Shown: in pieces, positions 29,769-55,792 of the stretch
How the letters are laid out: every line of letters begins with the position of its first letter
Numbering within the stretch: position 1 is the stretch's first letter
IMG/VR virus record: IMGVR_UViG_3300031463_000009
Coordinates: 1-57,961 of that record
From: a virus
Taxonomy: Duplodnaviria > Caudoviricetes
Length of the DNA: 57,961 nucleotides
Direction: 5' to 3' (one strand)
Made by a program: the position numbers and the translations under genes
Notes under the pieces: model-generated
Databases searched by the model: none
Told to the model about the DNA's origin: nothing
The model's input: the letters and a program-made list of their open reading frames with translations, nothing else

Positions 29769-30560
29769 ATGAACACTTTGCAAAAATTGGCAGACGAGGC
29801 TCAGGGAATCGATCCTTGGGCGTCCCCAGTATATCAAGCAGCTGTAAATAGAGCACTTGCGGATTTGGACAGAAAAGCACGTTTGGCATTTAGGAAAGTT
29901 AAAAAGCCGGTTGTTGATACAGAGAAAGAAGCACCATCACCTCTCTTGGCTTCCATGACAGGACACCCAGGTGCTCCATGGACTCCTTCATGGGCAAATC
30001 CACCAAAACAACAAGCGACAAAACAAGAAACACCAACATCAACGCCGACAGCGTCGGCTCTTTTGTCTGCTATATCAAGACATCCTGTCGCTGCTGGATT
30101 AGGAGCAGCCGGCACACTTGCTGGAGTTGGAACCCTTGCAGCGCTTTTAGCAAGACGAAGGGCAGAGAGATCATTCGCTGAGGCACTTGCACAAAGAGCT
30201 CCAGCAGCATTCGGAGGTTTAGGCAGCCTTGCTCCCCTTGGTGGTGGTTTACTCGCTGGCTACTTATTAGGACGTAGGAGCCAGAAACAGGCTTCTGCTT
30301 TGCCAACAGTTGAAGAATTGATTAATGAATTAAGGAATGGTCTTGAAAAATTGGGGTTCGATATGGTTAGTCCTCTTAGCTCATTGCCGGCAGTTAAACC
30401 CCAGATTGCCCCTATCTTTCCTGGGGCTATACCTCAAGCAGTCGCTAAACCTGGGGTGAACCCACTTGGACCACCAGGTCCTTCTGGTAGAGCTTTGTAT
30501 AGAGTTAGAACTCCTACGGCTGGTGAGTTGGCTGGTTACTCTATGCTTAGAAACAAATAG
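29769..30560 (+). CDS. Putative virion precursor protein (Gly/Ala-rich TM-like segments, K-x-A/G linkers)
   Basis: Starts MNTLQKLA; shares 'HPVA.GLGAAG.L.G.G.L.ALLARRRA' with next gene; linker 'KQASA...GLEKLG'. Confidence 0.65.
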   Translation: MNTLQKLADEAQGIDPWASPVYQAAVNRALADLDRKARLAFRKVKKPVVDTEKEAPSPLLASMTGHPGAPWTPSWANPPKQQATKQETPTSTPTASALLSAISRHPVAAGLGAAGTLAGVGTLAALLARRRAERSFAEALAQRAPAAFGGLGSLAPLGGGLLAGYLLGRRSQKQASALPTVEELINELRNGLEKLGFDMVSPLSSLPAVKPQIAPIFPGAIPQAVAKPGVNPLGPPGPSGRALYRVRTPTAGELAGYSMLRNK

Positions 30561-30685
30561 ACACAGACACTTAAATGTTAAGTAAAAAATTGATGGTTTT
30601 GTAGTAATAGAGTAAATAGACTTATGATTAGTTAGAGCTATACTTATCATTTAGTCTATTTTATTATTTTTTTAGGAGGACTATT

Positions 30686-32368
30686 ATGAACACTTTGAGA
30701 AAACTGGCCGGTTGGAGAGAATCCTACAATAAAGCAATGAATGTAATTGGCTATCCCGGAGAAGCTCTTGCTGGAATTATGGAGAAAAAGTTCAATCCTG
30801 ACGCATATTATGCTGGAAAAACTCCACCGTCTCCACCCCCTAGACAGAAAATACCGAAAGAGCCACAATATAGTACTCGTGGTCCTGTAGATGAGATTGT
30901 ACACACGTACACTAGTGCTGGATACCCAGCCCCCGAAACAGTGATACTTCCTGGTGTTCAAGCCACATTTCAGACCGAAGCAGGAAGGGAAGCTGTTGAT
31001 AAAGCTATAGCAGAGGACGAACTGAAAGCAAGGATGGAAGAATACAGGCAAATGATGCGTGGGCAGTCGGATGTTAAACCCAGACTTCCGTCGGCTACTA
31101 CTAGTCAACTAATTGACGAACTGCTTGGAAGAGCTAAAGAGAATATCAAAGCCAAAGCTTATAGTGCTAAGGCGGATCTTGGGAAAGTCTATCAAGAACG
31201 GGCTAAACCGTCAGCTGAAGCTGCTTTATCTGCTGTTAAAGGACATCCTGTCGCTACTGGATTGGGAGCCGCCGGTGCACTTGGGGGACTTGGAGCTCTC
31301 ATAGCCCTTTTGGCAAGACGAAGAGCACAGAAGGCTATGGCTACATCACTTGCAGCAAATGCCCGACCTGCATTAATGGAGGGATTGGCTAAATATGGTC
31401 CTCTTGCTCGTAGGTTTGGTCCTTGGTTGGGCGCTGGTTTAGTAGCTGGGTATTTACTGAACAGGGGTAAAAGCGCATCTGCCCCACAGACATTCCAAGA
31501 ATGGGCTGATGGGATAAGGAGCAGCATCGAAAAAGTTGGAGATGATGGGGATCTGCAAGGAGCATATCAACAGAATGTCAGGCCACATCTTGAATCTGCT
31601 ACCAGATCCGCGCTGCGGGCATATCAGCAAAATGTCAAACCTGTTGTTGGGGCAGCTGCTGGTACACCTGTAGGGCGTGCACTGGCAAATCAAGCCAATT
31701 TGATTGGGAACACTTTTAGGCAAGGTGTTCAGAATGTGCAGAGAGGGTATCAGCAAAATGTCAAACCAGTTGTTGAAGCTGCTGCTGGTACACCATTAGG
31801 ACGTGGAATAGCAGACCAAGTCAACTTAGTTGGAAACTATTGGAGGAACGCCGGCAATAAGGCTTATCAGAATGTTGTTAAACCTTTAGCTGGAGAAATA
31901 GCGTCTACTGTTAGACAACATCCTGTTGGTACGATGCTTGCACCTGGGGCTGTAATTGGGACTAGTTTAGGGGCTGGTTTAGGGGCTGGTTTAGGTTCTT
32001 TGCTGAGAAATAAAAAACAATCATCGGCACCACAGACATTCCAAGAATGGGCCGCTGGAGTGAGGGAAGGAATTGAAAAAGTCGGATTCGGTTGGGGAGA
32101 TGTTAGACAAGGTTTATCACGGGCAGGCGGTTTTGTTGCTGATCAAGGACGCTTAATCGGCAATTACTGGGGAAATGTTGGTAGAAGGGCGAACGAATAT
32201 GTCAGGTCTAATATTATAGACCCTACTCCCCAGATGCAGCCTCAAACCCCTGCTCAACCCCAAGCTAAAAAACCGTCTGGGGGTGGAGGCTTGGGGACGT
32301 TCTTCTTAGGCACTCCACTAAAGTCTCCTGCAAGAGAGCAACTTAAGGGGGTAGATTTTGGTGACTAA
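30686..32368 (+). CDS. Putative virion polyprotein with internal repeats
   Basis: Starts MNTLRKLA; two 'K.(A/S)SAPQTFQEWA.G.R..IEKVG' linkers; YQQNVKP repeats; three Gly/Ala hydrophobic stretches. Confidence 0.65.
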   Translation: MNTLRKLAGWRESYNKAMNVIGYPGEALAGIMEKKFNPDAYYAGKTPPSPPPRQKIPKEPQYSTRGPVDEIVHTYTSAGYPAPETVILPGVQATFQTEAGREAVDKAIAEDELKARMEEYRQMMRGQSDVKPRLPSATTSQLIDELLGRAKENIKAKAYSAKADLGKVYQERAKPSAEAALSAVKGHPVATGLGAAGALGGLGALIALLARRRAQKAMATSLAANARPALMEGLAKYGPLARRFGPWLGAGLVAGYLLNRGKSASAPQTFQEWADGIRSSIEKVGDDGDLQGAYQQNVRPHLESATRSALRAYQQNVKPVVGAAAGTPVGRALANQANLIGNTFRQGVQNVQRGYQQNVKPVVEAAAGTPLGRGIADQVNLVGNYWRNAGNKAYQNVVKPLAGEIASTVRQHPVGTMLAPGAVIGTSLGAGLGAGLGSLLRNKKQSSAPQTFQEWAAGVREGIEKVGFGWGDVRQGLSRAGGFVADQGRLIGNYWGNVGRRANEYVRSNIIDPTPQMQPQTPAQPQAKKPSGGGGLGTFFLGTPLKSPAREQLKGVDFGD

Positions 32369-32426
32369 TGTGCCAATCTTGGCAATACTAAATAATTAGT
32401 ATAAATTTACTTTAGGAGGTAAAAAC

Positions 32427-32867
32427 ATGGAAGACTATGAACTGTTAAAAACAGCAGCTGCATTAGATGCAGCCAAGAACAATGATGTCAACACTTTAGC
32501 AGAGCTATTCGTCATGGATCTGGATGACGCTACTAAAGAGGCATTGGCGAATGCTCTTGTGAAGGAGGCTGACTGGAACCTCTTTACAGGCGACGCTGGA
32601 GAGGCCCTTGCTCGTCTGTACGAGAGAATATTCCACCCAGAAGCCTACAGGGCTGGTCAGATCACGCCGGAAGATATTGAGGGTATAAAGAACAGAAATA
32701 CCATTGCACAACAGCGTGAGTTGATCAAAAAACTCAAATTAGGTGTTGGTGGAGCAACTGGGGCAGCTGGATTGGCTGGTCTTTTGGCAGCAGCGTTGGC
32801 ACTTCGTGGGCGTGCTCGCGGAGGCAGCAAACTCGTTTCCTTGCTAAGAAAGGTTCGTCCTCGGTAA
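32427..32867 (+). CDS. Leader-cargo precursor, array member 1
   Basis: 48-aa acidic leader ending VKEA; variable middle; hydrophobic plus basic tail ending LRKVRPR. Confidence 0.8.
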   Translation: MEDYELLKTAAALDAAKNNDVNTLAELFVMDLDDATKEALANALVKEADWNLFTGDAGEALARLYERIFHPEAYRAGQITPEDIEGIKNRNTIAQQRELIKKLKLGVGGATGAAGLAGLLAAALALRGRARGGSKLVSLLRKVRPR

Positions 32868-32950
32868 GTCTCTGGTAAACGCTTAAAGCCCTGTTTGACA
32901 ATCGTCAGATTTGTCAATCGGGTCTTGTAGACTAGATGAAGGAGGATAAC

Positions 32951-33322
32951 ATGGAAGACGATTATGAACTGTTAAAAACAGCAGCAGCATTGAACGCTGT
33001 AGAGAATGATGATGTCAACACTTTAGCAGAACTATTCGTCATGGAACTGGATAACGATACTAAAGTGGCACTGGCTAATGCTCTTGTAAAAGAGGCTGAA
33101 GGAGAAATAGGAAGAGATGAGAAAATTCCACCTTGGCTAGGTTCGGGTTTGCGATACGAAAGAATCAAAAAAATTCTTAGCGGACCTGCTGGATGGGGTG
33201 GAGCAGCTGGGTTGGCTTCTATACCGGGCATTTTGGCACTAGCATTAGCGCTTCGCAGACGTGGTGGTGCTAAAGGAGCTAACAAGCTCGTTTCTATGCT
33301 AAGAAAGGTTCGTCCTCGGTAA
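32951..33322 (+). CDS. Leader-cargo precursor, array member 2
   Basis: ATG at 32951 after GGAGG; same leader; same C-terminal LRKVRPR. Confidence 0.8.
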   Translation: MEDDYELLKTAAALNAVENDDVNTLAELFVMELDNDTKVALANALVKEAEGEIGRDEKIPPWLGSGLRYERIKKILSGPAGWGGAAGLASIPGILALALALRRRGGAKGANKLVSMLRKVRPR

Positions 33323-33418
33323 GCGGGGATATTGGTAAGAGCTTGGAGACCTGTTTTTGATACCCACCTTGCTGTCATCAGGTTTTAGACGCTGTGTAGC
33401 TAGCATAGTGAGGTCGAC

Positions 33419-33709
33419 ATGAAAGACGACTATGAACTGTTGAAAACAGCAGCAGCGTTAGATGCAGCCAAAAACAATGATGTTAACACTTTAGCAGAGC
33501 TATTCGTCATGGATCTGGATGACGCTACTAAAGAGGCATTGGCGAATGCTCTTGAGAAAGAGGCTTCATCTAAGTTACTAGCAAGACTTGCAAGAAGAAC
33601 TGCTAGTAGAAGTGCCGGTCTAAGGACTGCATTGGCTTCTCTTCTATTGGCTAGGGGTAGAGGTAAGTCTAACCAGATCAAGACTTTATTACGATTTTTG
33701 AGGAAGTAA
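33419..33709 (+). CDS. Leader-cargo precursor, array member 3 (cationic cargo)
   Basis: Same leader ending EKEA, then a 47-aa Arg/Leu-rich peptide. Confidence 0.8.
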   Translation: MKDDYELLKTAAALDAAKNNDVNTLAELFVMDLDDATKEALANALEKEASSKLLARLARRTASRSAGLRTALASLLLARGRGKSNQIKTLLRFLRK

Positions 33710-33710
33710 C

Positions 33711-34196
33711 TTGAAAGAGTATTTTAAGCTGGCGGATGATAATAATGATCATAAAGTAATTGATACTCTTAACGAGTATTTTTTCCGCCCTGGCATCATG
33801 AGATTAGTCACTGAGATAATAAGAAAGAAGAGTGTTCCACAAACTGTGAGAACCCCTGAATTGCTTCCAGTAGTTCTTCTTCTTGCAGCTATTGGAAAAA
33901 GCGCTGAAAAGAAAGCAAGTGAGCCATATTTTCCTCCTCCTCCGGTTGTGCAGCCTCCGCCTCCTCCTAGTTTTTATAATGCCCAGCAATTTCTTAAGGA
34001 AGAACAGAAGAGTAATAAATCTAGGTGGCTTATTCCAGTTGTAGCCGCTGGATTATTTCTTTACTTACTATCTCAGCAGAGACCTATTTCTGAAATAAGG
34101 GAGTTCATAGGTAGGAATAGGCCTTTACTAACTATGATTCCTGTGCTAAGCTATTTTTTAGGTAAGAAACCTGAGGAAGAAAATGCGACTAAATGA
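33711..34196 (+). CDS. Putative membrane-associated virion protein (Pro-rich linker)
   Basis: 'FKLA' and 'EKKAS' sites, poly-Pro, TM-like 'WLIPVVAAGLFLYLL'. Confidence 0.65.
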   Translation: MKEYFKLADDNNDHKVIDTLNEYFFRPGIMRLVTEIIRKKSVPQTVRTPELLPVVLLLAAIGKSAEKKASEPYFPPPPVVQPPPPPSFYNAQQFLKEEQKSNKSRWLIPVVAAGLFLYLLSQQRPISEIREFIGRNRPLLTMIPVLSYFLGKKPEEENATK

Positions 34197-34449
34197 GGAA
34201 GATCTAATAAAACTGGCACAGATTTCAGAACTATTAGAATCTGATGGGACGAACGTCCCTTTGTTTATAGGATCTCTTCCTGATAGAGTAATAGAACAAT
34301 TCTTGAGTATAGATCAAAATGACTTGGAAAAGACTGCGGCCTTTCTTTCACTTCGTGGACTTGGCAGACTTTTTGGAGGCTTAGGACGTGCGGTTAGAAG
34401 AACGAGTAGATTTTTAAAACTAAGACGACCTTTTCCACGATTCCTTTAA
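34183..34449 (+). CDS. Acidic leader + cationic amphipathic peptide precursor (divergent array member)
   Basis: Leader resembles array leader (LIKLA...LFIGSLPD...EKTA), then AFLSLRGLGRLFGGLGRAVRRTSRFLKLRRPFPRFL. Confidence 0.75.
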   Translation: MRLNEEDLIKLAQISELLESDGTNVPLFIGSLPDRVIEQFLSIDQNDLEKTAAFLSLRGLGRLFGGLGRAVRRTSRFLKLRRPFPRFL

Positions 34450-34543
34450 AAATCGTTTGATTTTTTGATATAGATAAACGAGGAGTAGTTAAACACTGAA
34501 CTACTCGTTTATTTAATGTTTTTTCAGTAGAAGGAGGTAGAAA

Positions 34544-35191: not shown

Positions 35192-35240
35192 ATAGCTACT
35201 TCAATTAGTTGCATTTAGACGACTAATGTAATAAACTAAT

Positions 35241-35320: not shown

Positions 35321-35372
35321 GTTCAATTGACTAATCTTTAGTTAAGCGGTATCACTTTATTTGGAGGTTAAT

Positions 35373-37058
35373 ATGATGAATTTTTACAAGACAAGGGTCT
35401 TAACTAAAACTGCTACAGTCAAAGTTCCTTTAGATCCTTCTATATGGGTTGACTTTATATCTCAATATGTTGCAAAGGAACATCCAGAACTTGTTGGTAA
35501 TAAAATAGCTGTTGAGTTTGACAAAGCCGATCCTGAAAAAGGATATGCTTTTGGAACTGTTAAAGTTTCTTCTTCTCAGGATACAACTAAAACTGTGGCT
35601 CTTCCGATAGTAATTGAAAATTTTAAGATATACCCATTGGATCTTATGTTAAAAGAAGGGGATCTAGCCCCTTATAATGAGGATGAGGTTTCGAGAATTT
35701 TGTTCTCTCCAAGCTTTGTAAACAAACTTGTTCCTCGTCCTAAAAATATGCCTGATGCCCCTATAGTTGTTCCTTTTGCTAGTTTGAATAAAGGGGCTTC
35801 TAAAACGGCCTTGTTTGAAGACTTGGGACCACTGACAGATGACAAAACCAAAAAGGAGTTCTTAAAGGAACTAAAAAATCATCCCGATTTACTGAAAGTA
35901 GCTGGTATAAAAGAGTTTTTCGAGAGTAAATATTCTCCTATGTCTAAAACACCGTTAGCTTACCTTTCAGACGGAAAGAAAGGATATACACTTGCTCAGA
36001 ATATATTCGACGGCTCATTCGAAGTGATAGAGAAAGACGCATCTGAAGCGGAAGTAGTCCAGTTTACTGAAGGAGAAGCATCTGAGGTCCCGCCTCCTCT
36101 TAATACTCCTGAATCAGGTCCTTGTCTTGTAAAGTGTGGCAATTCTATCATATCTGCTTACAGAATAAGTAAGGTGACTGACTTCGAACGGGTCTATGAA
36201 AGACCTATGTATGTTCTTCCTGAAGGGCTTTATTCTTTTTCAAAAGTGGCTGCTTCCAAATTTGACGAGGCAGTGGATGTATTCGGCCCTCCTGAGGGTT
36301 TTGGAATGTTCCTTTTCAATTCTAAAATAGCAAGCGTTCCTATGACCATCAATAGGGTAGGAGATGATTACTTTGCTAACGCTGGAACAGTCCCAATGCG
36401 TCTGATTTTTGTTCCAGAGCTTGCTTATCCTGTAAAATTAGCAAGCGAACTATTCATTCCTTATGACGCAGAATTTATACCTATGCGGAAACAGATAACC
36501 CTAGATGAGATGACCGGTCTTCCTGAAGAATCTTACCAGTATCATCTGATAAAACAGGGTAATAGCTTTTATCTTGGTGGAGACGCCAGAAACTTGTCTA
36601 ATCTATCTGCAAGAGATGCTTTCTTGCATCTAATATCACTTGGATGTTCTGACAAGCTGGCATCAAAAATCATTAAAGAAGCTTCATCAAATCCTAATGG
36701 GAAAACTTTCTGGTCGAATTCTCCTGAGTTTGCTTGCGCTGACCTGCAGAAAACCGCAGACCTTATAGATGAGCTTAAGGAATCTTTATTTGACGAGAGC
36801 GAAGATCTTAAGGCAACCCCTGCGGTGGATAAAGTCCTGGCTCTTTCTGTTTTAACTCCAGAGAACCTAGGGGTTTTCTTGAATCATGCCGATGAACTTG
36901 AAGATTCAATTTCTTATTTATCTAAGCTGTTACTTTTATGTAGGCTTGGTTTGAGAGATGTTCCAGAGTCGAGTGTAAAAACCTCATTATCTTCTTTGGC
37001 CAAACTTAAGAATATATTGGGGTTAATACAAGAATCTATACCAAAGGAAGGGGAATGA
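35373..37058 (+). CDS. Large hypothetical protein, probable virion/prohead component (many K-x-A sites)
   Basis: GGAGG RBS before ATG 35373; TKTA, SKTA, LKVA, VKLA, KEAS, QKTA sites. Confidence 0.6.
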   Translation: MMNFYKTRVLTKTATVKVPLDPSIWVDFISQYVAKEHPELVGNKIAVEFDKADPEKGYAFGTVKVSSSQDTTKTVALPIVIENFKIYPLDLMLKEGDLAPYNEDEVSRILFSPSFVNKLVPRPKNMPDAPIVVPFASLNKGASKTALFEDLGPLTDDKTKKEFLKELKNHPDLLKVAGIKEFFESKYSPMSKTPLAYLSDGKKGYTLAQNIFDGSFEVIEKDASEAEVVQFTEGEASEVPPPLNTPESGPCLVKCGNSIISAYRISKVTDFERVYERPMYVLPEGLYSFSKVAASKFDEAVDVFGPPEGFGMFLFNSKIASVPMTINRVGDDYFANAGTVPMRLIFVPELAYPVKLASELFIPYDAEFIPMRKQITLDEMTGLPEESYQYHLIKQGNSFYLGGDARNLSNLSARDAFLHLISLGCSDKLASKIIKEASSNPNGKTFWSNSPEFACADLQKTADLIDELKESLFDESEDLKATPAVDKVLALSVLTPENLGVFLNHADELEDSISYLSKLLLLCRLGLRDVPESSVKTSLSSLAKLKNILGLIQESIPKEGE

Positions 37059-45768: not shown

Positions 45769-46038
45769 ATGAAAGATTTTTCAGCACTCAAGAAACTTTT
45801 GGGTTTGCAGAAAATAGCCGTATCGCCACCCGGTTGGGCAGGGACTGTTGAAGCTATGAAGGAAAGGCACCCAGAAATCACTAACCCATGGGCGTTGGCG
45901 TGGTGGCAGTATAAGCGTGGGCATAAGTCGCATATACCCGAAAGTGCTGAGCATAAAGCCAAGAAAGCCGCCGAAAAGAAGGCCAGTTATTCAGCTTTGG
46001 CTAAACTAAAAGAGATTGCTGAAAAATACAAACGTTAA
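45769..46038 (+). CDS. Small putative virion protein
   Basis: 'SPPGWAGTVEAMK..HPEI.NPWALAWW' module flanked by QKIA and EKKA. Confidence 0.7.
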   Translation: MKDFSALKKLLGLQKIAVSPPGWAGTVEAMKERHPEITNPWALAWWQYKRGHKSHIPESAEHKAKKAAEKKASYSALAKLKEIAEKYKR

Positions 46039-46052
46039 GGAGATTGATCACA

Positions 46053-46928
46053 ATGGAAGTAACTAAAGAATTAATCCAAGACATAGTGCAGAAGGCATCG
46101 TCTTTGTTTTTAGAAGGTAGGGTATCCACTCCTACCGAGGCCACGATAAGTGTGCTGAAGACTGTGGATCTTCCTGTTCCTGCAATAGAGAGGGTATGTG
46201 AAGGTGTTAACACGGCTATTTATAGAGATTTATATTTGAATGGGAAGAAAAACCGGGCTGCAAAGTTTCCATTGTGTAATAAAGAAGAAGTTATCAGGGC
46301 TGTAAAAGGTAAGGTTGCAACTTCTCTTGGGTGGAAGATCCCACCTGAAAAAGCAAGTCTGCCGGGAGCTAAAACAGCATCCGCCGATATGAAGAAAGCT
46401 GCAAGTGCTGAGCTAGCTACTAATAAAGATTATTTACATCCTCCTGAGGTGTCTTTGACATCTAAAAGGGCATTACAAGCCCTTGAAAAGTGGGCATCTC
46501 AACCCAAGCTTGCTCCAGATACTCTTGTGTTTGACAACGTTTTTATTGCCGATAAATGGTTAAGGATCATCGTGGATGCTGAACAAAAGATGAACACCAA
46601 GCTTGCTTCATTACAGAACGAGATCAGCAAGTTGATAGGCGCTATTAGTGACACAGCTTGGAGAACCTGTTTGGATGGAGTCCCTGTTGGAGATATTGTT
46701 AAATTGGCGGAGAGTAATCCGGGCATAGTCAGGTTCGTCCAAGAATGGACTTTGAGTAGAACAGGTAAACCAAATGATTTACAATCTACAGATAAGGAGA
46801 TAAATCCGGAGCATCCTTTAGTTAAGATGCTTATGGAATATGAACTGGCTACTGCCACCACTCGAAAGGTAGCTAGTGCTTTGAAAAAGATAGTTAAACT
46901 TAGAAAAAGGGTGGAAAAAGTAAGATGA
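46053..46928 (+). CDS. Putative prohead protein (many K-x-A-S sites)
   Basis: KTAS, KKAAS, KWAS, KLAS, KVAS; AAGGAG RBS. Confidence 0.65.
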   Translation: MEVTKELIQDIVQKASSLFLEGRVSTPTEATISVLKTVDLPVPAIERVCEGVNTAIYRDLYLNGKKNRAAKFPLCNKEEVIRAVKGKVATSLGWKIPPEKASLPGAKTASADMKKAASAELATNKDYLHPPEVSLTSKRALQALEKWASQPKLAPDTLVFDNVFIADKWLRIIVDAEQKMNTKLASLQNEISKLIGAISDTAWRTCLDGVPVGDIVKLAESNPGIVRFVQEWTLSRTGKPNDLQSTDKEINPEHPLVKMLMEYELATATTRKVASALKKIVKLRKRVEKVR

Positions 46929-47176
46929 AAGCTTTTGTTAAAGAGTTTGAGAAACAGGCCGGTGCTCTTAAGCTGTTGACAGCCCCTTTAAGAATTTTAA
47001 ACCCATTTGCTGCTAGGAATGGTCTATTTCGCGAAGTTAGGGCTGCCGTTCCATGGGCGCTTTGGGATGTTCCTTTTGATATTAAATCTACTATTAATGA
47101 TATTGGACAAATGGGGGCTAGGAGACATTTGGCAAGGTATGGCTATTGGCCTCAGCCTCCTTTAGGAGAAGACTAG
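46925..47176 (+). CDS. Small precursor with MKAFVKEFEKQA leader
   Basis: Leader nearly identical to that of the next gene. Confidence 0.75.
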   Translation: MKAFVKEFEKQAGALKLLTAPLRILNPFAARNGLFREVRAAVPWALWDVPFDIKSTINDIGQMGARRHLARYGYWPQPPLGED

Positions 47177-47178
47177 AT

Positions 47179-47436
47179 ATGAAGACATTTGTTAAAGAGT
47201 TTGAAAAAGCAGCCGCCGCTCCCGAAGAGGGCGCCCCATTGTCGGCAATAGCGTTTAATCTTCTGCGTCTTCCGTTTGAATTATATGGATTAGGTCTACA
47301 GAAGTATCCGCTACTTACTATAGGTGGAACAGCTTATCTGTTGTACAAGAGACCTTGGGAGCGCTTTTTCAACAGAGATCAAGAGGCTGGACCGATGCCT
47401 GGATATTCTGGTGGCGGAGGTCAATTTAGTCTATGA
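47179..47436 (+). CDS. Small precursor with MKTFVKEFEKAA leader
   Basis: AGGAG RBS before ATG 47179; TM-like segment. Confidence 0.75.
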   Translation: MKTFVKEFEKAAAAPEEGAPLSAIAFNLLRLPFELYGLGLQKYPLLTIGGTAYLLYKRPWERFFNRDQEAGPMPGYSGGGGQFSL

Positions 47437-47945
47437 ATAAAAATGCAGGAATACTGGATCGGACTGCATGGGAGGCTTCCTATAAGCCTTTCAAACCCAT
47501 TCTTCCGTTATGGATGGATATTATCCCTGGAGGGGCTAACGGAATAAAGAAGCTGTTTAAGACCTTGGCTTTTCCGGTTGCCTTGTCCGCGGTATATCTC
47601 ATAGGTCAGGGTGTGTGGAAGGCTAAAGATAAGTTGTTGATAAATAGGAATTTGGATGCTGTTTTGGAGCAACGACCCGAACTAAAAGAGTATCCTGTGG
47701 AAGACGTACGTAAAGCTTTAGGGGCAATATATACAATTAATCCTGATATAGCTTCTAATCCTGTGTATGCAGCTGATTTGATAAAGCAGACACTTGATGC
47801 TGGAGCAAAAGCTCCTCCTTTGGCGGCAGTTAAAGAACTTGGAGAAATCAAAAAGATTATGAAAGGACCCGGTTCATCAGAGACGATGAAAAATCTTGCT
47901 GTGCGCATCATTGGTAGTCTTCCTTCAGTGATATTAAAAGGTTAG
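47433..47945 (+). CDS. Putative virion protein
   Basis: Starts MNKNA; hydrophobic helix; immediately upstream of protease. Confidence 0.65.
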   Translation: MNKNAGILDRTAWEASYKPFKPILPLWMDIIPGGANGIKKLFKTLAFPVALSAVYLIGQGVWKAKDKLLINRNLDAVLEQRPELKEYPVEDVRKALGAIYTINPDIASNPVYAADLIKQTLDAGAKAPPLAAVKELGEIKKIMKGPGSSETMKNLAVRIIGSLPSVILKG

Positions 47946-47959
47946 AATTGGGATAAACA

Positions 47960-49384
47960 ATGATAAAAAGAATTTTTACAGGTGGTCAGAAACCGGTAGC
48001 AGGATGGGGGAGTAGACAAGGATTAGTTCTTTCCCCTCAGATAGGTCTTGTTAAATTCGGAGCTTCTGGGTCTGCTGTAGAACTTGGATATAGGCCAAAA
48101 GAGGTTCATGAGTTTTTACAGACATATAAGGTGACCCCTGGGCATTTTGCTCTTAGGATAGTCCCTATGGGAGCTTCTGAGGTTTGGGGACCTAATGATA
48201 GAGGAGACATCTGGCCTGAATCTGGCCTCCATCCGACAGACGAACAAGGAAGAGAACTTACGGATGTTTGGTGGGGATACAAATCTTTTGAAAAGAATGC
48301 CCACGTGTATCGGCATCATTTTAATTTTGATCCGAGTTTTTCCATTGGAAGAATCGTTAAAGCGTTCTGGGACCCAGATATGCACCGCATTGAGTTGGTT
48401 GCTGAAGTAAATTCTGAACAAGCTCCAGACATTAAAGAAGCCGCCGAAAGAGGTGATGTAATTGAAGGTTCTATGGGAGCCAAAATCCCAGAAGGCGATG
48501 TATGTTCTGTGTGCTATAACAGAGCTCTCAACAGAAGCATGTATTGTACCGACCTTCGTGAGCATATGGGAGAATTAACAAAAGAAGGTGCTTATATAGG
48601 GGCGATTAACGAGAAGCCAAAGTTTTTTGATTACTCTATCGTAACAAAGCCAGCAGCCAAAGAGAGTGGCACTGTAGAATTTCTAAAAGCAGCATCAGCT
48701 AAACTATCCAGTGCAGACCTTGCTTACGAAATAAAATATGATCCTGATAAAGTGGCTATGGAGCAGATGATCTATGAATATAGTCCAAAAGCCCACAGGA
48801 TTATGTCCAGGGAGAAAGAAATCCCAACAAACTATTTACTCAAGTTAGGAAGTTCTGTTCCCCTCCCTGTAAGTGTTTCAACTTTGTATTCTCTGGGGAT
48901 TCTTTTGAATCCTCTTGAGTTCCAGACATTGGTTTTGTCTGGGACTAATACTAAACTGGCTGAGGCGTATGCTTCTAATAGATTAGTGTTTCCACCAAGC
49001 AAATACTCTGAGCCCTTTACTATTGACCTATCATTAGTCGACAAAGAATTAGTGCAACAATTAGTAAAGTTTGCAGACTATAGAAGTGGCTTTGAGCCTT
49101 ATTTTCTGGCACGCTGGAGAGGTATTATACCTCCTGATATTCCACAGGTATTTAGAGTATTTACTGGTGATGCTCTTCTCAATAAGATTGGTAGTATTTA
49201 CAATGGATATAGAGAGGAAGCCTTGAAAAATTTAGGCAAGCTCATTGATTATTATAAAACGAGTCCGTCGACCGTAACGCCGTTCGGAATTACTTTGGAA
49301 AAATCGGCGTGCTGGTTGGGGGGTCTTGAAAGCCCGGTTACAAGACTTTATTTTAGGGCTTTCTGCAATTATTCATGGAAATAA
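47960..49384 (+). CDS. Prohead maturation protease (HK97/herpes-fold serine protease) with Zn insert and C-terminal extension
   Basis: 'VYRHH....SIGRI' (His), 'EGSMG' (Ser), 'CSVC...C..L..H' insert, 'FFDYSIVTKPA'; upstream of capsid gene. Confidence 0.8.
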   Translation: MIKRIFTGGQKPVAGWGSRQGLVLSPQIGLVKFGASGSAVELGYRPKEVHEFLQTYKVTPGHFALRIVPMGASEVWGPNDRGDIWPESGLHPTDEQGRELTDVWWGYKSFEKNAHVYRHHFNFDPSFSIGRIVKAFWDPDMHRIELVAEVNSEQAPDIKEAAERGDVIEGSMGAKIPEGDVCSVCYNRALNRSMYCTDLREHMGELTKEGAYIGAINEKPKFFDYSIVTKPAAKESGTVEFLKAASAKLSSADLAYEIKYDPDKVAMEQMIYEYSPKAHRIMSREKEIPTNYLLKLGSSVPLPVSVSTLYSLGILLNPLEFQTLVLSGTNTKLAEAYASNRLVFPPSKYSEPFTIDLSLVDKELVQQLVKFADYRSGFEPYFLARWRGIIPPDIPQVFRVFTGDALLNKIGSIYNGYREEALKNLGKLIDYYKTSPSTVTPFGITLEKSACWLGGLESPVTRLYFRAFCNYSWK

Positions 49385-49434
49385 GTACTGGCTCGACCAG
49401 TAGTTTCCGTGGAAAGAAATTTGGAGGAATTACT

Positions 49435-49788
49435 ATGGAAAAAGTAAAAGCTAGTGAGTTGATCAGGGACATTACCGAGGCTCCGATTGAGGATCTTGAG
49501 GAAGCGTTTCTCAGCATGGTGGTTGGTGATCAGTCTAAACAGGCGGCGTCCGGTATTGACGAGTCAGTGATTGTGGACATTGCTGAGCAGTATGGTGTGT
49601 CTCCGGAGTCTTTGCTTGAAGCGGTTGAGCTACTTGGGGAGGAACCAGATATTGGGCAGGCTCCTGTGGAAAGAAAGGTAGCAGACCTTGGCATCAGCGA
49701 AGAAGAGTATCGGGAAGTTCTTGGATCAGCTATCCTGGAGGCCGCCTCTGATTTAGGGCTTCTGGAAGATGATCTTTCTTCCAAATAA
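49435..49788 (+). CDS. Acidic scaffold-like protein
   Basis: Very Glu/Asp rich; KQAA and KVAD sites; GGAGG RBS before 49435. Confidence 0.55.
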   Translation: MEKVKASELIRDITEAPIEDLEEAFLSMVVGDQSKQAASGIDESVIVDIAEQYGVSPESLLEAVELLGEEPDIGQAPVERKVADLGISEEEYREVLGSAILEAASDLGLLEDDLSSK

Positions 49789-49809
49789 TTTTAAGGAGGT
49801 TAGATTACA

Positions 49810-50205
49810 ATGGTGTGGGATAAAGTAGATGCGCTTGATCCTATTGTAAGAATCCTCAGTGGATTCAATGCCACTGATGCTTCTATTACTAAAGAGGCCC
49901 AGAAACAGTCCGAAGTTACCGAACAGGCCGACGGACTTTTGGCTGCTTTAGGGATTTCTGATCTTGCAGACGAGAGTGTTGATTCTAGCCTAAAAGGTGG
50001 GAAGAAAGAGGCGGAGTCGCCTAATCCTGAGGCGGAACTGGCGAATAGACTTGGGGTTATTATGGCTGACTCCTGTGCTAACAGACTGGATGAGCTTCTG
50101 TCTGGAGAATTTGAAGCAAAGGAAGCTGAAAGTTCAAGCTATGATAAGACCCAGCTTTTCGACGACGCTCTCGCTTTGGTCTTGGCCAGACGTGGTTTGA
50201 TCTAA
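49810..50205 (+). CDS. Acidic scaffold-like protein
   Basis: Three KEA sites; 'LGVIMADS' helix. Confidence 0.55.
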   Translation: MVWDKVDALDPIVRILSGFNATDASITKEAQKQSEVTEQADGLLAALGISDLADESVDSSLKGGKKEAESPNPEAELANRLGVIMADSCANRLDELLSGEFEAKEAESSSYDKTQLFDDALALVLARRGLI

Positions 50206-50229
50206 TCTTGCCATTTCTGGAGGTGCCAG

Positions 50230-50592
50230 ATGAATGAAGAAGAGGCTAAACTCTTTGGAGAGCTTTGTGCGGAGATGACTTTTACCAAATTGGCACAAGC
50301 CAAACTTTTGGCTCCACTTGTTATGGGTGCGGTAAAAAAGTTTGGCGGGAGACTTGTGCTTGACAAGCTTCTAGCAAAAGAAGGAATTAAAGGTCTTGAA
50401 GAATTTGGTACTTTGGATATTTTCAAAACACTCACACACACCCTTTTTCACCCTCAGCTTGGCTGGAGCCATCCTGTAACTAGGCAGCTTGCTGGAGAGT
50501 TATTTTCTCGTCCTGCTACATGGGGAACTCTTTATGCCGGCCACCAAATGCTTACCGGTCGTCCACTTATTCCTAAATTAAGGAGTGATTAA
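50230..50592 (+). CDS. Putative virion precursor (acidic leader ending TKLA)
   Basis: 'EEEAKLFGELCAEMTFTKLA', then an amphipathic segment. Confidence 0.65.
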   Translation: MNEEEAKLFGELCAEMTFTKLAQAKLLAPLVMGAVKKFGGRLVLDKLLAKEGIKGLEEFGTLDIFKTLTHTLFHPQLGWSHPVTRQLAGELFSRPATWGTLYAGHQMLTGRPLIPKLRSD

Positions 50593-51198
50593 ATGCCGAC
50601 ATTTAAGGAGATATTTGATCCTGAGCTTGACAAAGAAGCAGCGGGTCCTAGTTTCTGGTTTTGGCGTCTTCTTGGTGAAGGACTGAAGAAAGTCCCATTA
50701 CTCAAAGGAGTAGGTGAACAATCCTTAGTGAGAGCTGTACGTGGTGCACTTACTCCAAAAGGCATAATACCTTATGAACTTCACGTTCCTAGTGTTCTCG
50801 CAGAAGATACAGCAGTTAAAAATTTGTTTAACTCTCTTTCTCGTCAAGGCAAGACTAGACTTCTTGGTACAATGTTTGAAAGAGGTGGTGAGCCTGCACT
50901 TAAGTCCATAGCTACTGAATATAAGCTCGGTAAAAAACACCAAGAAAGCATGTTAGGCCTACTTAAAGAGAGAGCTAAATCTAGTAACATACCGGTCCCT
51001 GGTGTTTTTAATCCTGCGAAAGAAAAAGCCGAACAAGAAGCTGCAGAACTCGCAAAAAATGAGACTAAAAAAGGTTGGGGGGAGAAAATTCCTTGGTGGG
51101 CTGGTGGATTGGCCGGCTATGCCGCTCACGATTTAATTTCGGGTGGCGGAGGAGGAGGGGTAGGAAACGGTAAACAAAGGACGGTGATTATAGGATGA
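50593..51198 (+). CDS. Putative virion precursor (leader ending DKEA)
   Basis: 'MPTFKEIFDPELDKEA'; C-terminal 'WWAGGLAGYAA'. Confidence 0.65.
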   Translation: MPTFKEIFDPELDKEAAGPSFWFWRLLGEGLKKVPLLKGVGEQSLVRAVRGALTPKGIIPYELHVPSVLAEDTAVKNLFNSLSRQGKTRLLGTMFERGGEPALKSIATEYKLGKKHQESMLGLLKERAKSSNIPVPGVFNPAKEKAEQEAAELAKNETKKGWGEKIPWWAGGLAGYAAHDLISGGGGGGVGNGKQRTVIIG

Positions 51199-51854
51199 CT
51201 TTATCTCCACTTACACAAGGTTTGATGGCAGGTTCTGTTGTATCTCCTTTGCTTAGTCCGATTGCAGGGATTCCTGTTGGATATGGAGTTTATAGGCATG
51301 CGAAGAAGAATGTCGTTCCACAGGAAGTTGTTCCACAAGAAGAAGCTCCTAATCCACCTAGTAGCCATCTTGGACTGAAAGCAGGTCTTTTAGGGTTAGG
51401 GCTATTAGGCGTTGGTGGAGCTTTAGCAGCTTTGGCAAGTAGAAGATGGGGAGTTCCATCGTTAGCTTTTGCTAAGGCTTCTAGGTTAATAAGTAGAGCG
51501 GTTAAAAGCACTAATCCGGAGATAGCTCAGTTCTATGCTTCTGAAGCTGGGTCTTTAGTTGGGCAGATTCTTAATAGAGCTCCCGCTCCAGCTATTGGTC
51601 TTCTTGAGCATTTCGCTAAAAAACTTCCAAGTAATGAGATGAGACATCAGTTTTATACTTCCGCCGGTCATTTCTTTGAACCAGCAAGTACTATTGCAAA
51701 TGCCCTTAGACCAGAAAAGGCTAAACAGCTATTACTGAGCCCGGCTACAGCTGGAGCTTTAGGAGTCGGTGGTCTTCTGATTGGTCATCAGTTGGGAAAA
51801 CGGAGATCTTCTGGTGGTGGAGCTAAGAATGTAAGGCTTTACAATATAGAGTAA
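51195..51854 (+). CDS. Putative membrane-inserting virion protein
   Basis: Three Gly-rich hydrophobic helices, each followed by basic residues. Confidence 0.65.
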   Translation: MTLSPLTQGLMAGSVVSPLLSPIAGIPVGYGVYRHAKKNVVPQEVVPQEEAPNPPSSHLGLKAGLLGLGLLGVGGALAALASRRWGVPSLAFAKASRLISRAVKSTNPEIAQFYASEAGSLVGQILNRAPAPAIGLLEHFAKKLPSNEMRHQFYTSAGHFFEPASTIANALRPEKAKQLLLSPATAGALGVGGLLIGHQLGKRRSSGGGAKNVRLYNIE

Positions 51855-51868
51855 TGAGGAGGAATTAG

Positions 51869-52117
51869 ATGCCGACCATATTAGATCTTTTAGAAAAAGA
51901 ACTAACAGAAGCTGAGGAAAAGAAAAAAGCAAAAGCTCAGCCTGTGCAGAAGGATGAAAGCGAGAAGACTGAAGCTTCTGCACCTAAGGAGGCATCCGTT
52001 ACTCAAAATACTCCAACAGACTCCGAATTAGTCCAAGCCAGTATTACTCTATTACACGGCTTGGCAGAACTAATAGAGAATGATAGATTAGTCATTGAAG
52101 GATTAGGAAATGACTAA
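51869..52117 (+). CDS. Small acidic protein (scaffold-like)
   Basis: GGAGG RBS; KEAS site. Confidence 0.6.
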   Translation: MPTILDLLEKELTEAEEKKKAKAQPVQKDESEKTEASAPKEASVTQNTPTDSELVQASITLLHGLAELIENDRLVIEGLGND

Positions 52118-52400
52118 ACATGAATTAGTTGGAGCTCTTAGAAAAACAGCTGAGTTGTTAACTAAACTCAGCGAAGAAAATCAAGAGCTTCGGCAAAAGA
52201 TAGCCTCTATGGAAGAGGCATCGAAGATTGAGGACTTTGAAATTAAGTCAGCTTCAGCTGCGCCAAATATTGTGGCCAGAGAAGAAGCGACTAAGACAGC
52301 GTCTGGATGGATAGAGTCTCTTGGTGAACCTGCAGTTCCACAGATGACCGATCCTGTGCAGACCCTGATAGATATGATTTTTGAAAAAGGAGGTAACTAA
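52110..52400 (+). CDS. Coiled-coil scaffold-like protein
   Basis: KTAE, KIAS, KSAS, KTAS sites; just upstream of capsid genes. Confidence 0.6.
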   Translation: MTKHELVGALRKTAELLTKLSEENQELRQKIASMEEASKIEDFEIKSASAAPNIVAREEATKTASGWIESLGEPAVPQMTDPVQTLIDMIFEKGGN

Positions 52401-52402
52401 TA

Positions 52403-52807
52403 ATGATCGAACTAAAAGATAGTCTTGGAGTAAATGTGGTCAAAGATTCCATGGCAGTTGCAGATACTACTGACTGGGATAATATCAACGAGGGTATGTT
52501 CCTTGCTATTGGTGATACTGGGTTGCTCGAGAGGTCTTCTGCTAACAGCAAACCTAAGTATTTCCCAGTGCTTTCTAAAGATAAGTCTGGGAAGGCGCTT
52601 GGTCAGGTTGTATATCTGAGAGGAAACTCTTATATTATCAAGACCGACCAGGTTGCTGGTAGTATGTCTGTTGGTGGTTCTTGCACAGTAGATACCACTG
52701 CCAAAGGCAAGTTGACTACAGCTAGTGGGTCTGCGACTGTTGTAGGAATTGTTTTGGAAAAAGAAACCGTTGGTGGGACCGATTATTACACCATTCTGGT
52801 TCTTTAA
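52403..52807 (+). CDS. Probable capsid decoration/cement protein
   Basis: 134-aa beta-rich protein ('GKL......VVGIV') directly before MCP. Confidence 0.6.
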   Translation: MIELKDSLGVNVVKDSMAVADTTDWDNINEGMFLAIGDTGLLERSSANSKPKYFPVLSKDKSGKALGQVVYLRGNSYIIKTDQVAGSMSVGGSCTVDTTAKGKLTTASGSATVVGIVLEKETVGGTDYYTILVL

Positions 52808-52832
52808 TTTGTATAAAAGGAGGTAATTAACA

Positions 52833-53936: not shown

Positions 53937-53978
53937 CCATTTGCTAATCGCTTAATCCTCTTCTCCCTTTTGGTGGAT

Positions 53979-54028
53979 GACCCGGTGGCTGGTTACAACA
54001 ACCAACTCACCGGGTCTTTCCTTTTTTA
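53979..54028 (+). terminator. Intrinsic terminator after MCP
   Basis: GACCCGGTG...CACCGGGTC stem, then TTTCCTTTTTT. Confidence 0.8.
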
Positions 54029-54054
54029 CTGGTTATTTTCAACGATACTTTGTC

Positions 54055-54083
54055 TTGACAGAATACAAGTTTCTAGTTATCTT
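54055..54083 (+). promoter_or_regulatory. Sigma70-like promoter
   Basis: TTGACA-N17-TATCTT. Confidence 0.55.
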
Positions 54084-54098
54084 TAGTTTAGGGATAAC

Positions 54099-54668
54099 AT
54101 GGAGGATACCTATATAGTAGTGTTGAAAGACCCAACAAAGACTCCTATTGCTGAATATTGCCCTGCAGTACGGGTTGCTGAGCGCTGGCATCAGGTTGAT
54201 ATAGCTGGTCAATGGAGAGACCCTGGATATACATTTAAGGTTAATCCAGAGTCTAAACCAAGATATTTAAAAGATTTGATCAGACTAGGTCTGGTAGAAC
54301 TAGTGAATACAGATTCGGAGGAAATAATGTCTTGGGTGGTAACTAACAAATCTAGGTTTAATGTCGCTTTCGAAGGTAAGTATCTTAAGCCTAATGAATC
54401 TGTGCACCTGACAGAGCTTACCGAGCCTATTATGAGGCTTATTAACGCCGGCAAACTTGTTTGCTCTTCTTCCAAAGAGTTAAGCACTGAGTATTTCTTT
54501 GAAACCGCACCTTTCACAGTTGGGTTTGTTCCAGTAATTGATCTAAAAGAACTAAACCATGATCAACTGACGGCATTTTTGACTGATTATGATATAAAGT
54601 TTGATCCAACTATGTCAATTGAACAGTTGCGAGAGTTGGCACTTTCGCATTTAGAGAAGGCGGCTTAA
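54099..54668 (+). CDS. Hypothetical head-associated protein with C-terminal HeH-like motif
   Basis: Ends 'LKEL..DQL..FL..Y.I......EQL.EL'; follows MCP. Confidence 0.55.
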   Translation: MEDTYIVVLKDPTKTPIAEYCPAVRVAERWHQVDIAGQWRDPGYTFKVNPESKPRYLKDLIRLGLVELVNTDSEEIMSWVVTNKSRFNVAFEGKYLKPNESVHLTELTEPIMRLINAGKLVCSSSKELSTEYFFETAPFTVGFVPVIDLKELNHDQLTAFLTDYDIKFDPTMSIEQLRELALSHLEKAA

Positions 54669-54669
54669 A

Positions 54670-55452
54670 ATGACAAAGACTAGATTCAGACAGGATGAGT
54701 TGGCTTATTGGGATCTTTATTTCAAAGATAAAAACGGGAACTACGTTTGGCCTGAGAAATTTTCAGCTGATATTTATGACTCTGAGGGTAATCTTCAGAC
54801 CACTGTAGCAGAGAATGGTGATGTGAGCTACTCACAAAAAACCGATCCTAATGGTCACAAGTGTATCCACATAAGTAAAATACCAATCGATAATTACTCT
54901 GAGGGAGTTGTTACTATAAAATCCAAAGTAACTATTGATGGTCTTAGCAAAGAGGTAAGTGAGCCTGCGTTTGAGGTGTCATTTTATACACCTATAAACT
55001 CTATAGGTGTGGATTCTATGGTCAGAAAGGTCAGAAGGTTCCTTAGAGATCATAAGGAGCTTAATGAACTTCTGGGGGACTATGAATCCACAGATGAATC
55101 TATCAAAGAGGCTATCAGAGAAGCTATATCTGATTACAACACCGAGCCGCCTTTAATTGAATCGATTTCTCTGAATAGTTTTCCTTCAGGTGCTGATGGG
55201 ATATTAGTTTTAGGGGCATCTTATCACATACTTAATTCTGTCTTAAACTGGAGAGCCAGAGAAGGGCTTCCGTTTTCTGATGGTAAGATGAACATGGACC
55301 CAATAGGAGGTCCTGCAAACGCACAAAACAATAGATTACAGACACTCTATCAGATTTACAAGGATCGTCTAAGAAGATTTAAGATGCTTAGAAATATTGA
55401 TTCAATGTATGATTCTGTTGAGTGGCTATATGATACTTGGTTTTATTTTTAG
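54670..55452 (+). CDS. Probable head-tail adaptor/neck protein
   Basis: N-terminal Ig-like part, then 'VRRFLRD...N.L....E..DE.I..AI..AI..YN..PP'; position after MCP. Confidence 0.55.
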   Translation: MTKTRFRQDELAYWDLYFKDKNGNYVWPEKFSADIYDSEGNLQTTVAENGDVSYSQKTDPNGHKCIHISKIPIDNYSEGVVTIKSKVTIDGLSKEVSEPAFEVSFYTPINSIGVDSMVRKVRRFLRDHKELNELLGDYESTDESIKEAIREAISDYNTEPPLIESISLNSFPSGADGILVLGASYHILNSVLNWRAREGLPFSDGKMNMDPIGGPANAQNNRLQTLYQIYKDRLRRFKMLRNIDSMYDSVEWLYDTWFYF

Positions 55453-55468
55453 TAAAAAGGAGGTTAAC

Positions 55469-55792
55469 ATGGGTAACGAGAATACAATTAATAATGAGAA
55501 CCAGGAATTGACAGAGACTCAACCGGTAGAACAGACTCCTGAACCTTTGCCTGATTTAAGTATGTTTTCAGGAGATCAGGAACGAGAGGCGTTGGAAAAC
55601 GGTATTTTGAAGTATGGCGGGTTGCTAGATGCTGCAGACAAGGTGAGTGATATTCTTGCAGGATCAATACTTGGCCAAATTGATTCCAAAGCAGCTGAAG
55701 AACAGACCCTTGAGGATGTGGCTGCCCAACTTGGAGAGATGCTTGCTGTAAGCATTTACACAGATCTACTTTATGGCTCTCCGCAAGAATGA
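55469..55792 (+). CDS. Acidic scaffold-like protein
   Basis: AAGGAGG RBS before ATG 55469; 'LGEMLAVS' helix like 49810. Confidence 0.6.
   Translation: MGNENTINNENQELTETQPVEQTPEPLPDLSMFSGDQEREALENGILKYGGLLDAADKVSDILAGSILGQIDSKAAEEQTLEDVAAQLGEMLAVSIYTDLLYGSPQE

Follow-up and report, generated by a model that had tools for sequence, protein, structure and literature searches.

The window analysed here, by which we mean the whole stretch of 57,961 bp, is a complete virus record of the IMG/VR database (IMGVR_UViG_3300031463_000009) with an estimated completeness of ~32%. It is about one third of a ~180-kb tailed-phage genome and kin of Salmonella phage Arash; its nearest named relatives, all of them distant, are Arash (181 kb) and the Vibrio phages D181, D148, and D69 (~187 kb). 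Two blocks of late genes, mostly unannotatable, hold an SLT transglycosylase, a candidate prohead protease, and a major capsid protein (MCP) of the HK97 fold (Table 1; plus-strand genes are named by the first position of their open reading frame, ORF). The proteins of this head module are rich in a short motif, K-x-A, often with a hydrophobic residue at position -2 relative to the Lys. We consider it likely that the module uses proteolytic maturation of the kind found in phages T4 and phiKZ, with the new code [L/M/F/I]-x-K-x-A.

We compared 29 late proteins (5727 amino acids, aa) with the 51 other proteins of the window (12881 aa). Expected counts were taken from 1000 rounds of shuffling within each protein, a procedure that removes effects of composition. 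The pattern K.A, in which the dot stands for any residue, was observed 79 times in the late proteins against 42.1 +/- 5.7 expected, a count that none of the 1000 shuffles reached; the other proteins showed no enrichment (53 vs 62.3). Control patterns were flat in the late proteins, both when the motif was reversed or re-spaced (A.K 44 vs 42.3; KA 41 vs 42.2; K..A 47 vs 42.1) and when one residue was exchanged (R.A 28 vs 28.8; K.S 26 vs 27.4). After four obvious paralogues had been dropped, K.A still stood at 69 vs 34.2, again with 0 of 1000 shuffles reaching the observed count. At least one K-x-A is present in 25 of the 29 late proteins, and an unbiased scan of residue pairs at spacings 0-3 placed K.A first of 1236 pairs in the late set and 1347th of 1572 in the comparison set. 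Sites with a hydrophobic residue two before the Lys numbered 39 vs 13.1 expected in the late proteins (21 vs 4.3 within the first 60 residues), and such a site lies within the first 60 residues of 17/29 late proteins vs 6/51 others. The full motif reads [L/M/F]-x-K-x-A-[S/A/E], with K-x-G as a rare variant.

The initial annotation of this DNA had proposed a K-x-A/G code across the late proteins. All the peptides that it quoted were found in the genes to which it had assigned them, as were the recurrences inside the protease (FLKAAS at residues 243-245, DKVA at 264-266, and EKSA at 448-450) and its peptide EGSMG, which contains Ser171. The shuffles bore out both the enrichment and the positional bias, which is N-terminal, in the late genes only. 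The Ala part of the code stood, with the counts given above; the Gly part did not, K.G being not enriched as such (30 vs 33.2). Requiring a hydrophobic residue at -2 gave K-x-G no more than a weak excess in the window (18 vs 10.6; 20/1000 shuffles).

As a control of the method, the same pair scan was applied to nine T4 head proteins from the T4 record. Of 1013 pairs, I.E came first (36 vs 17.1) and L.E eighth. The scan thus recovers the known gp21 motif L/I-X-E, indicating that a prohead-protease motif leaves this kind of footprint.

The motif was then followed across related viral loci. A single protease sequence used as the query found no relatives among the IMG/VR loci, and an alignment-based profile was needed; with a profile of 20 protease homologues, at least 582 related IMG/VR stretches were recovered, of which 80 loci, on contigs of up to 185 kb and with ORFs from simple greedy calls, were kept. 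In the 1556 ORFs on the protease strand, K.A was observed 4712 times vs 2621.6 expected, and the reversed A.K 2331 times; the observed/expected ratio of K.A exceeded 1 in 80/80 loci, the lowest value being 1.20. The 343 ORFs on the opposite strand gave 143 vs 161.8. Among 1230 non-identical ORFs, no pair outranked K.A (3690 vs 2116, z 34); next came L.K, C.H (z 13.1), M.K, K..E, and F.K, with K..S at z 11.3. The logo of the sites in relatives shows [M/L/F] at -2, E at -1, K, [V/Q/T/E], A, and then [S/E/A]; Glu just before the Lys occurs at 21% of sites (3.1x), and S, A, and E are enriched directly after the Ala. The pattern [LMF].K.A was found 1521 times vs 290 (5.2x), and substitution abolished the excess almost entirely: G for A gave 1.05x ([LMF].K.G 239 vs 227), S for A 1.06x, and R for K 1.15x. 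The motif is therefore strict for both K and A. Its density is 2-3x higher in the first 30 residues; ORFs that begin M-x-K-x-A (24/1230) are too few to fix its N-terminal limit. In the window and in the clade alike, the motif is over-represented in head-module proteins, is concentrated N-terminally, and requires both K and A.

Enrichment was not a property of the folded enzymes and shells. Summed over orthologues (loci L003-L082), K-x-A observed/expected was 0.99 for the MCP (60 vs 60.6), 0.75 for RNA polymerase (80 vs 107.1), and 0.71 for the terminase (37 vs 51.9), compared with 2.0 for the protease. The deficit in RNA polymerase and terminase, and a count no higher than expected in the MCP in spite of its conserved N-terminal site, may mean that proteins which have to withstand the protease avoid the motif.

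The gene of the candidate protease lies 3.4 kb upstream of that of the HK97-fold MCP, and the order is the same in Arash, D181, and Bacillus phage G. Its product is laid out as an N-propeptide, a catalytic domain (residues ~44-243), a helical C-terminal domain (251-440), and a short C-terminal tail. The AlphaFold (AF2) model, made from an alignment, has a mean predicted local distance difference test (pLDDT) score of 77.5, with low-confidence segments (pLDDT<50) at residues 1-43, 244-253, and 441-451 besides the last three residues. In VIA-align, residues 58-244 matched T4 gp21 (5jbl_A) with Z 10.1 and a root-mean-square deviation of 2.9 over 126 aa; the varicella-zoster virus (VZV) protease 1vzv_A scored Z 9.5, the human cytomegalovirus (HCMV) protease 8j3s_A Z 7.0, and the next unrelated fold (MlaD) 5.3. 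In Foldseek, herpesvirus proteases led the list with probabilities up to 0.97, all as weak matches (E>0.01). As modelled, the catalytic domain has the characteristic gp21/assemblin protease fold. Searches with tblastn matched the 'capsid maturation protease' of Gordonia phage Pupper, gp19 of phage G (2e-5), and Arash gp222 (1e-28).

In the 20-sequence alignment of the protease (A1), whose members are 22-47% identical to the window protein, H120 is conserved in >=90% of sequences and neither D180 nor D224 varies; the family representatives carry the motif SMG[C/A]. This conservation suggests Ser171 and His120 as putative catalytic residues. C182, C185, and C196 (48503-48547) are also invariant, in an arrangement C-x-x-C ... 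C that is usually followed by x-H in relatives, and they probably form a zinc knuckle inside the protease domain. In the window protease, Asp replaces the His that most relatives carry in this knuckle; no counterpart of the knuckle was seen in T4 gp21.

Three copies of the motif lie at the domain borders of the protease. The K32/A34 columns of site 1, which falls in the low-pLDDT segment 1-43, and the K243/A245 columns of site 2 are nearly invariant in A1, and the linker 244-253 begins at the second residue of site 2. Of 62 unique protease orthologues taken from the loci, 46 have both anchor motifs, and sites 1, 2, and 3 are present in 35, 45, and 44 of these 46 (site 3 counted within the last 150 aa). 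An exhaustive profile search returned 4871 cluster representatives (50% identity) at E<=0.001, with 2474 at E<=1e-30, and members of the family occur in environmental phages of ~130-185 kb, in Arash, and in phage G (497 kb). Among the best 147 representatives, 139 have hydrophobic-x-K-x-A within the first 70 aa. The number anchored is likewise 139; directly after the domain, 121 of these carry hydrophobic-x-K-x-A, 10 carry M-x-K-L-G-S, and 8 neither, so that the A and G forms together account for 131/139. The ten G forms and the window's own KFG indicate that G is a genuine but rare substitute for A. A motif at conserved inter-domain linkers is as expected for autoprocessing sites.

Some homologues are much longer. 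Among the 147 representatives P0022-P0168, 46 exceed 800 aa and match the profile in two or three pieces (breaks near profile positions 159, 68, and 174), and in P0019 Pfam domains of the Hint and LAGLIDADG families are present. Inteins or homing endonucleases thus seem to be inserted near the catalytic SMGC motif of some protease homologues.

We then considered the candidate substrates. The sequence-family searches returned no match for the MCP or for several of the substrates. By structure, the MCP gave 263 Foldseek matches in the PDB at E<=0.001, all of them capsid or encapsulin shells, and G-[L/I/M]-x-K-x-A near MCP residue 25-35 is kept in 28/36 unique orthologues in an alignment read by eye. 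Seven small proteins of the first late block share a short N-terminal leader that closes with hydrophobic-x-K-x-A; behind it come hydrophobic stretches rich in Gly and Ala, and Arg-rich tails. They match no Pfam or PHROG family and are candidate internal or ejection proteins. Gly/Ala-rich 'zipper' stretches (for example AAGLGAAGTLAGVGTLAALLA) with Arg-rich tails also occur in the proteins of 45276-45767 and 50593-51854, again with no family matches. Small late proteins of this zipper type, often behind a K-x-A leader, may be membrane-active internal or ejection proteins. In the seven proteins of 29769-34449, and in several encoded around the protease, the N-terminal leader that ends in the motif is 5-50 residues long.

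Other late proteins carry the motif many times. The 565-aa protein of gene 35361, whose orthologue in locus L003 has 13 K-x-A sites, is a candidate multi-cut core or scaffold-like protein; it matches no Pfam or PHROG family, and since a search of the ESM Atlas gave no usable match, its role is a guess. The product of gene 46044 has 10 K-x-A vs 3.3 expected, with 8 and 12 in its orthologues from L003 and L077. Its gene lies two genes upstream of the protease, a position that matches that of Arash gp220, and phmmer detected no similarity between the two; it is a candidate scaffold-like protein. Between the protease and the MCP, 52110 has 4 sites vs 0.9 expected and 49810 has 3 vs 1.1, and 51195 has none. 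The counterparts of this stretch in Arash (gp223 and gp225) and in D181 (16343-17152) are likewise rich in sites. Taken together, the multi-site proteins 46044, 35361, 52110, and 49810 show the pattern of the multi-cut core proteins of T4 (PMC9026906; here and below, published systems are described from the passages covered of the papers cited).

Table 1 Features of the window, with the proposed protease and its candidate substrates first.
Feature	Position	Strand	Remarks
Prohead (capsid maturation) serine protease, predicted, 474 aa	47960..49384	+	Fold, conserved Ser, gene position
Ser171 codon (EGSMG), proposed nucleophile	48470..48472	+	Invariant in 20/20 sequences of alignment A1
Protease site 1, L-V-K32-F-G34	48053..48061	+	End of N-terminal propeptide; K-x-G variant here, K-x-A in relatives
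Protease site 2, F-L-K243-A-A245(-S)	48686..48694	+	Directly after catalytic domain; release-site analogue
Protease site 3, L-E-K448-S-A450	49301..49309	+	Before C-terminal tail; in segment 441-451
MCP, HK97 fold, 367 aa	52833..53936	+	Foldseek; tblastn to Arash MCP
MCP candidate site, I-W-A-K26-E-A28	52908-52916	+	
Seven small proteins	29769..34449	+	29769, 30686, 32427, 32936, 33419, 33711, 34183; motif in first 60 aa, 7/7
565-aa protein	35361..37058	+	12 K-x-A vs 3.4 expected; leader R-V-L-T-K-T-A
Five proteins upstream of protease	45769..47945	+	45769 (GLQKIA), 46044, 46925 and 47146 (paralogues, VKEFEKxA leaders), 47433 (MNKNA)
Proteins between protease and MCP	49375..52400	+	Seven with sites, including 49375, 49810, 50230 (FTKLA), 50593 (ELDKEA), 51869, 52110
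Leader/boundary peptides			MNTLQKLA (29769), MNTLRKLA (30686), LVKEA (32427, 32936), LEKEA (33419), MKEYFKLA (33711), LEKTA (34183), VLTKTA (35361), GLQKIA (45769), FEKQA (46925), FEKAA (47146), MNKNA (47433), FTKLA (50230), ELDKEA (50593), WAKEA = MCP K26-A28 (52833)
Two late-gene blocks	29769-37058, 45276-55792	+	Mostly unannotatable; hold SLT transglycosylase, candidate protease, HK97-fold MCP
Portal gene	1-1386		Window opens inside it; homologue of Arash gp204
Large terminase	3683-5275	-	
Replication block	8479-22640		Helicases, primase, DNA polymerase, UvsX-like recombinase, exonuclease, amidase
Fused beta/beta' RNA polymerase	22775-28918	+	Single 2047-aa ORF
Radical-SAM protein	39869-40750	-	Within insert 39475-45142
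Repeat protein, GNA-x-V/F units	43624-44463	-	phrog_7964 at E 4e-116

The same arrangement is found in cultured relatives. Phage G gp19 and Arash gp222 are direct homologues of the window protease and have the same site layout. In Arash, gp222 carries GGLTKQA and SVLEKVA, the MCP carries QGLVKEA, and K-x-A is frequent in gp220 (10 vs 3.0 expected), gp223 (8 vs 3.0), and gp225 (7 vs 1.8). The MCP of Vibrio D181 carries QGLTKEA, and the protein encoded at 16343-17152 of that phage has 10 K-x-A vs 2.9 expected. Phage G gp19 carries LGLVKTA, ILEKVAS, and LLKIAS, the portal gp14 carries FQMAKQA, and K.A ranks first among the pairs in 15 proteins of the phage G head region (44 vs 24.2). The code may thus extend to phage G, the largest cultured phage. 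Within its head region (locus L083, 7337-14729), gp7, gp11, the portal gp14, and gp21 are rich in K-x-A. Virion preparations of Arash were found to contain gp222 (Table 2 of the Arash paper), and phage G gp19 is named head maturation protease in PMC12484599; no cleavage motif is reported in the passages covered of the Arash and phage G (PMC12484599) papers. The 86.6% peptide coverage of the Arash MCP is compatible with a loss of ~29 residues and is non-discriminating. In Gordonia phage Pupper, the sequence of the distant homologue gp94 was ambiguous in this respect (AAKKYA behind the domain; MCP QVKLA), so the code is not claimed for actinophages.

In the proteolytic maturation that we favour, the product of gene 47960 would be a prohead serine protease acting through Ser171 and His120 and cutting after the Ala, with P1 = Ala, P3 = Lys, and P5 = hydrophobic. 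From the sequences we infer cleavage at the motif, and we place the scissile bond after the Ala because S, A, and E are enriched at the next position and because the fold-related HCMV protease has been assayed on ...Asn-Ala-Ser-Ser... and Ala-ACC substrates (PMC13486704). The protease would free itself at K32-F-G34, K243-A-A245, and K448-S-A450, cuts by which the catalytic domain would come free of a docking or scaffold-like domain at the C-terminus. It would also remove 5-50-residue leaders from the MCP and many small internal proteins; these leaders possibly double as capsid-targeting sequences, as in T4. The multi-site proteins 46044, 35361, 52110, and 49810 would be chopped up as disposable core or scaffold before DNA packaging. 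The 'large protein core' that the initial annotation inferred to be remodelled here may be likened, by analogy, to those of T4 and phiKZ, and its overall reading, a K-x-A code of late proteins with the gene 47960 product as the protease, is supported by the enrichment, its recurrence in all 80 loci, the gp21/assemblin fold, and the linker sites, with cleavage as the predicted step.

Several observations weigh against this reading, and they are considered here together with the alternatives to which some of them lend weight. For all members of the group, cleavage is deduced from sequence and model. The MCP of phage G is without any K-x-A. The Arash paper has 0 occurrences of 'protease' or 'cleav' and lists gp222 as 'structural protein'. 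Arash gp221, gp223, and gp224 carry multiple sites yet reached 100% peptide coverage, which argues against complete loss of the fragments, but the preparation held many non-structural enzymes. The MCP site is absent from 7/36 orthologues (one further N-terminus is truncated by the ORF call), and K26-A28 of the window MCP lie inside a confidently predicted helix (22-43, pLDDT ~90) rather than in a disordered linker, which departs from the picture in the protease. The last point would suit a motif that is a docking or capsid-targeting signal, read by the scaffold, the portal, or the protease C-terminal domain, and left uncleaved or cut nearby. We regard such a role as unlikely. It would agree with the concentration of the motif in N-terminal leaders, and the 10-residue capsid targeting sequence of T4 does have separable targeting and processing residues (PMC9026906). 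However, a targeting signal leaves unexplained up to 12 sites along single proteins, as well as sites at both borders of the catalytic domain, in or at the edge of low-confidence linkers, that are conserved across thousands of homologues; the T4 control, moreover, shows that a cleavage motif yields such enrichment.

The motif might instead be cut by another protease, from the host or from a phage gene in the two thirds of the genome that lie outside the window, with the gene 47960 product a mere substrate or scaffold, and we consider this very improbable. The fold match to gp21 and assemblin is well above background, Ser171 and His120 are conserved, the gene closely precedes that of the MCP, an order shared with Arash, D181, and phage G, and no second protease was detected among 64 window proteins scanned. 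The motif also accompanies the gene in 80/80 loci, these loci having been recovered through that gene. The window, however, holds only ~32% of the genome, phage G also encodes ClpP (PMC12484599), and the 47960 protein has no curated protease family match by sequence. It gave no Pfam family at E<=0.01 and no NCBIfam at E<=1, with no family-profile match in these scans to MEROPS S77 (T4 gp21) or to Pfam Peptidase_S77, S78, or S21, and just two weak matches, unnamed or misnamed, among PHROGs. Matches of its profile to PDB chains stayed at chance level, and hhalign with T4 gp21 returned a probability of 0.09. Because no family match exists at the sequence level, the catalytic residues are assigned from conservation only, which also counts against the proposed protease. 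It is least probable of all, and indeed scarcely credible, that the enrichment is a functionless by-product of composition, of helical low-complexity sequence, or of paralogue ancestry, an explanation that the statistics have already largely refuted. The late proteins are K/A/E-rich and include paralogue families, and even in the T4 head proteins K.A ranked 22/1013 (30 vs 20.2, z 2.2), so a small background preference may exist. Yet shuffling removes composition, the reversed and re-spaced patterns are flat, the result survives the collapse of paralogues, R for K and G or S for A are unenriched, and sites are conserved at aligned positions in proteins that are just 20-30% identical.

The known phage rules end in Glu: L/I-X-E in T4 (PMC9026906) and S/A/G-X-E in the phiKZ group, with S/A-X-E in phiKZ itself and A-X-E in SPN3US (PMC10052503, PMC5694885). 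An X-X-E specificity is not supported here: the top pair, in the window and in the related loci alike, is K.A, not L.E, I.E, or A.E, and the conserved linker sites of the protease are K-x-A/G. With the T4 gp21 system (MEROPS S77), the proposed system shares the protease fold and a short linear motif with an upstream hydrophobic residue. The leaders on internal proteins IPI-III, the multi-cut core, the cut at the MCP N-terminus, and the processing of the protease in T4 (PMC9026906) all have predicted counterparts here. Unlike the T4 motif with its acidic P1, that of the window combines a basic residue with a small P1, and the window protease has no sequence similarity to gp21, is >2x as long, and carries in addition a helical domain at its C-terminus and a cluster of invariant Cys residues. 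The phiKZ gp175, SPN3US gp245, and 201phi2-1 gp268 systems likewise process many head and internal proteins, with propeptides that carry redundant sites, and these giants also package a multisubunit RNA polymerase in the virion (PMC5694885, PMC10052503), as Arash does. They differ in that they cut after Glu, whereas here Glu is preferred before the Lys and the motif ends in Ala, and the genomes here are ~130-185 kb, with RNA polymerase beta and beta' fused in the window.

Herpesvirus assemblin (pUL26/pUL80a, MEROPS S21) resembles the window protease in fold, VZV and HCMV proteases being among its matches, and differs in that its hosts and capsid proteins are very distant. In the herpesvirus cleavage consensus P3 is hydrophobic, and Lys is not known to be required. 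The R-site and M-site of pUL26, with a linker site, a C-terminal scaffold-type region, and a second site near the end, parallel the layout seen here (PMC4498786), and the small P1 Ala with P1' Ser recalls the HCMV ...Asn-Ala-Ser... and Ala-ACC substrates (PMC13486704). The herpesvirus triad is Ser-His-His (PMC4498786); the putative catalytic residues of the window protease are Ser171 and His120. A tentative idea, which we hold to be rather doubtful, is that the 4871-cluster protease family keeps the herpesvirus-like P1 Ala/P1' Ser chemistry and the release and maturation sites, set around a C-terminal domain that docks the scaffold, adding a phage-specific P3 Lys. If this were true, Ala-Ser cleavage could be ancestral to herpesviruses and tailed phages, with the Glu-specific T4 and phiKZ enzymes derived; the mature virion proteomes of thousands of uncultured phages would become predictable and foreign proteins targetable into their heads.

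Prohead proteases determine the set of proteins that a phage head retains and the form each of them takes, and their rules are known for few lineages. Our searches of open-access literature found no Lys-x-Ala cleavage rule for a phage. Hydrophobic-x-Lys-x-Ala would be a different rule, inferred from sequence statistics by an approach that is validated by its recovery of the T4 rule. It would apply to a family of thousands, including the cultured Arash, Vibrio D181, and phage G, and it predicts where mature proteins begin, which core proteins are disposable, and which peptides are leaders. It would also assign a function to the gene called merely 'structural protein' in Arash, link the substrate preference of a phage enzyme to herpesvirus assemblin, and suggest a targeting/processing tag for loading cargo into these capsids.

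The remaining observations concern gene layout. The minus-strand insert 39475-45142, which parts the two late blocks and also encodes small Cys-rich proteins, separates what is a contiguous head module in Arash. Several starts given by the longest ORF are probably too early: 47146 likely begins at codon 12 (MKTFVKEFEKAA, parallel to its paralogue 46925), 49375 at codon 21, and 55397 at codon 25, and 35361 likely starts at codon 5, where the ESM Atlas entry begins. In the fused RNA polymerase, Rpb2 domains occupy residues ~330-890 (beta-like) and Rpb1 domains ~1080-1900 (beta'-like); these parts are separate in Arash (gp206, gp216) and fall into three genes in Vibrio D181. Judged by spectra, the RNA polymerase subunits of Arash outnumber all other proteins in the virion preparations.

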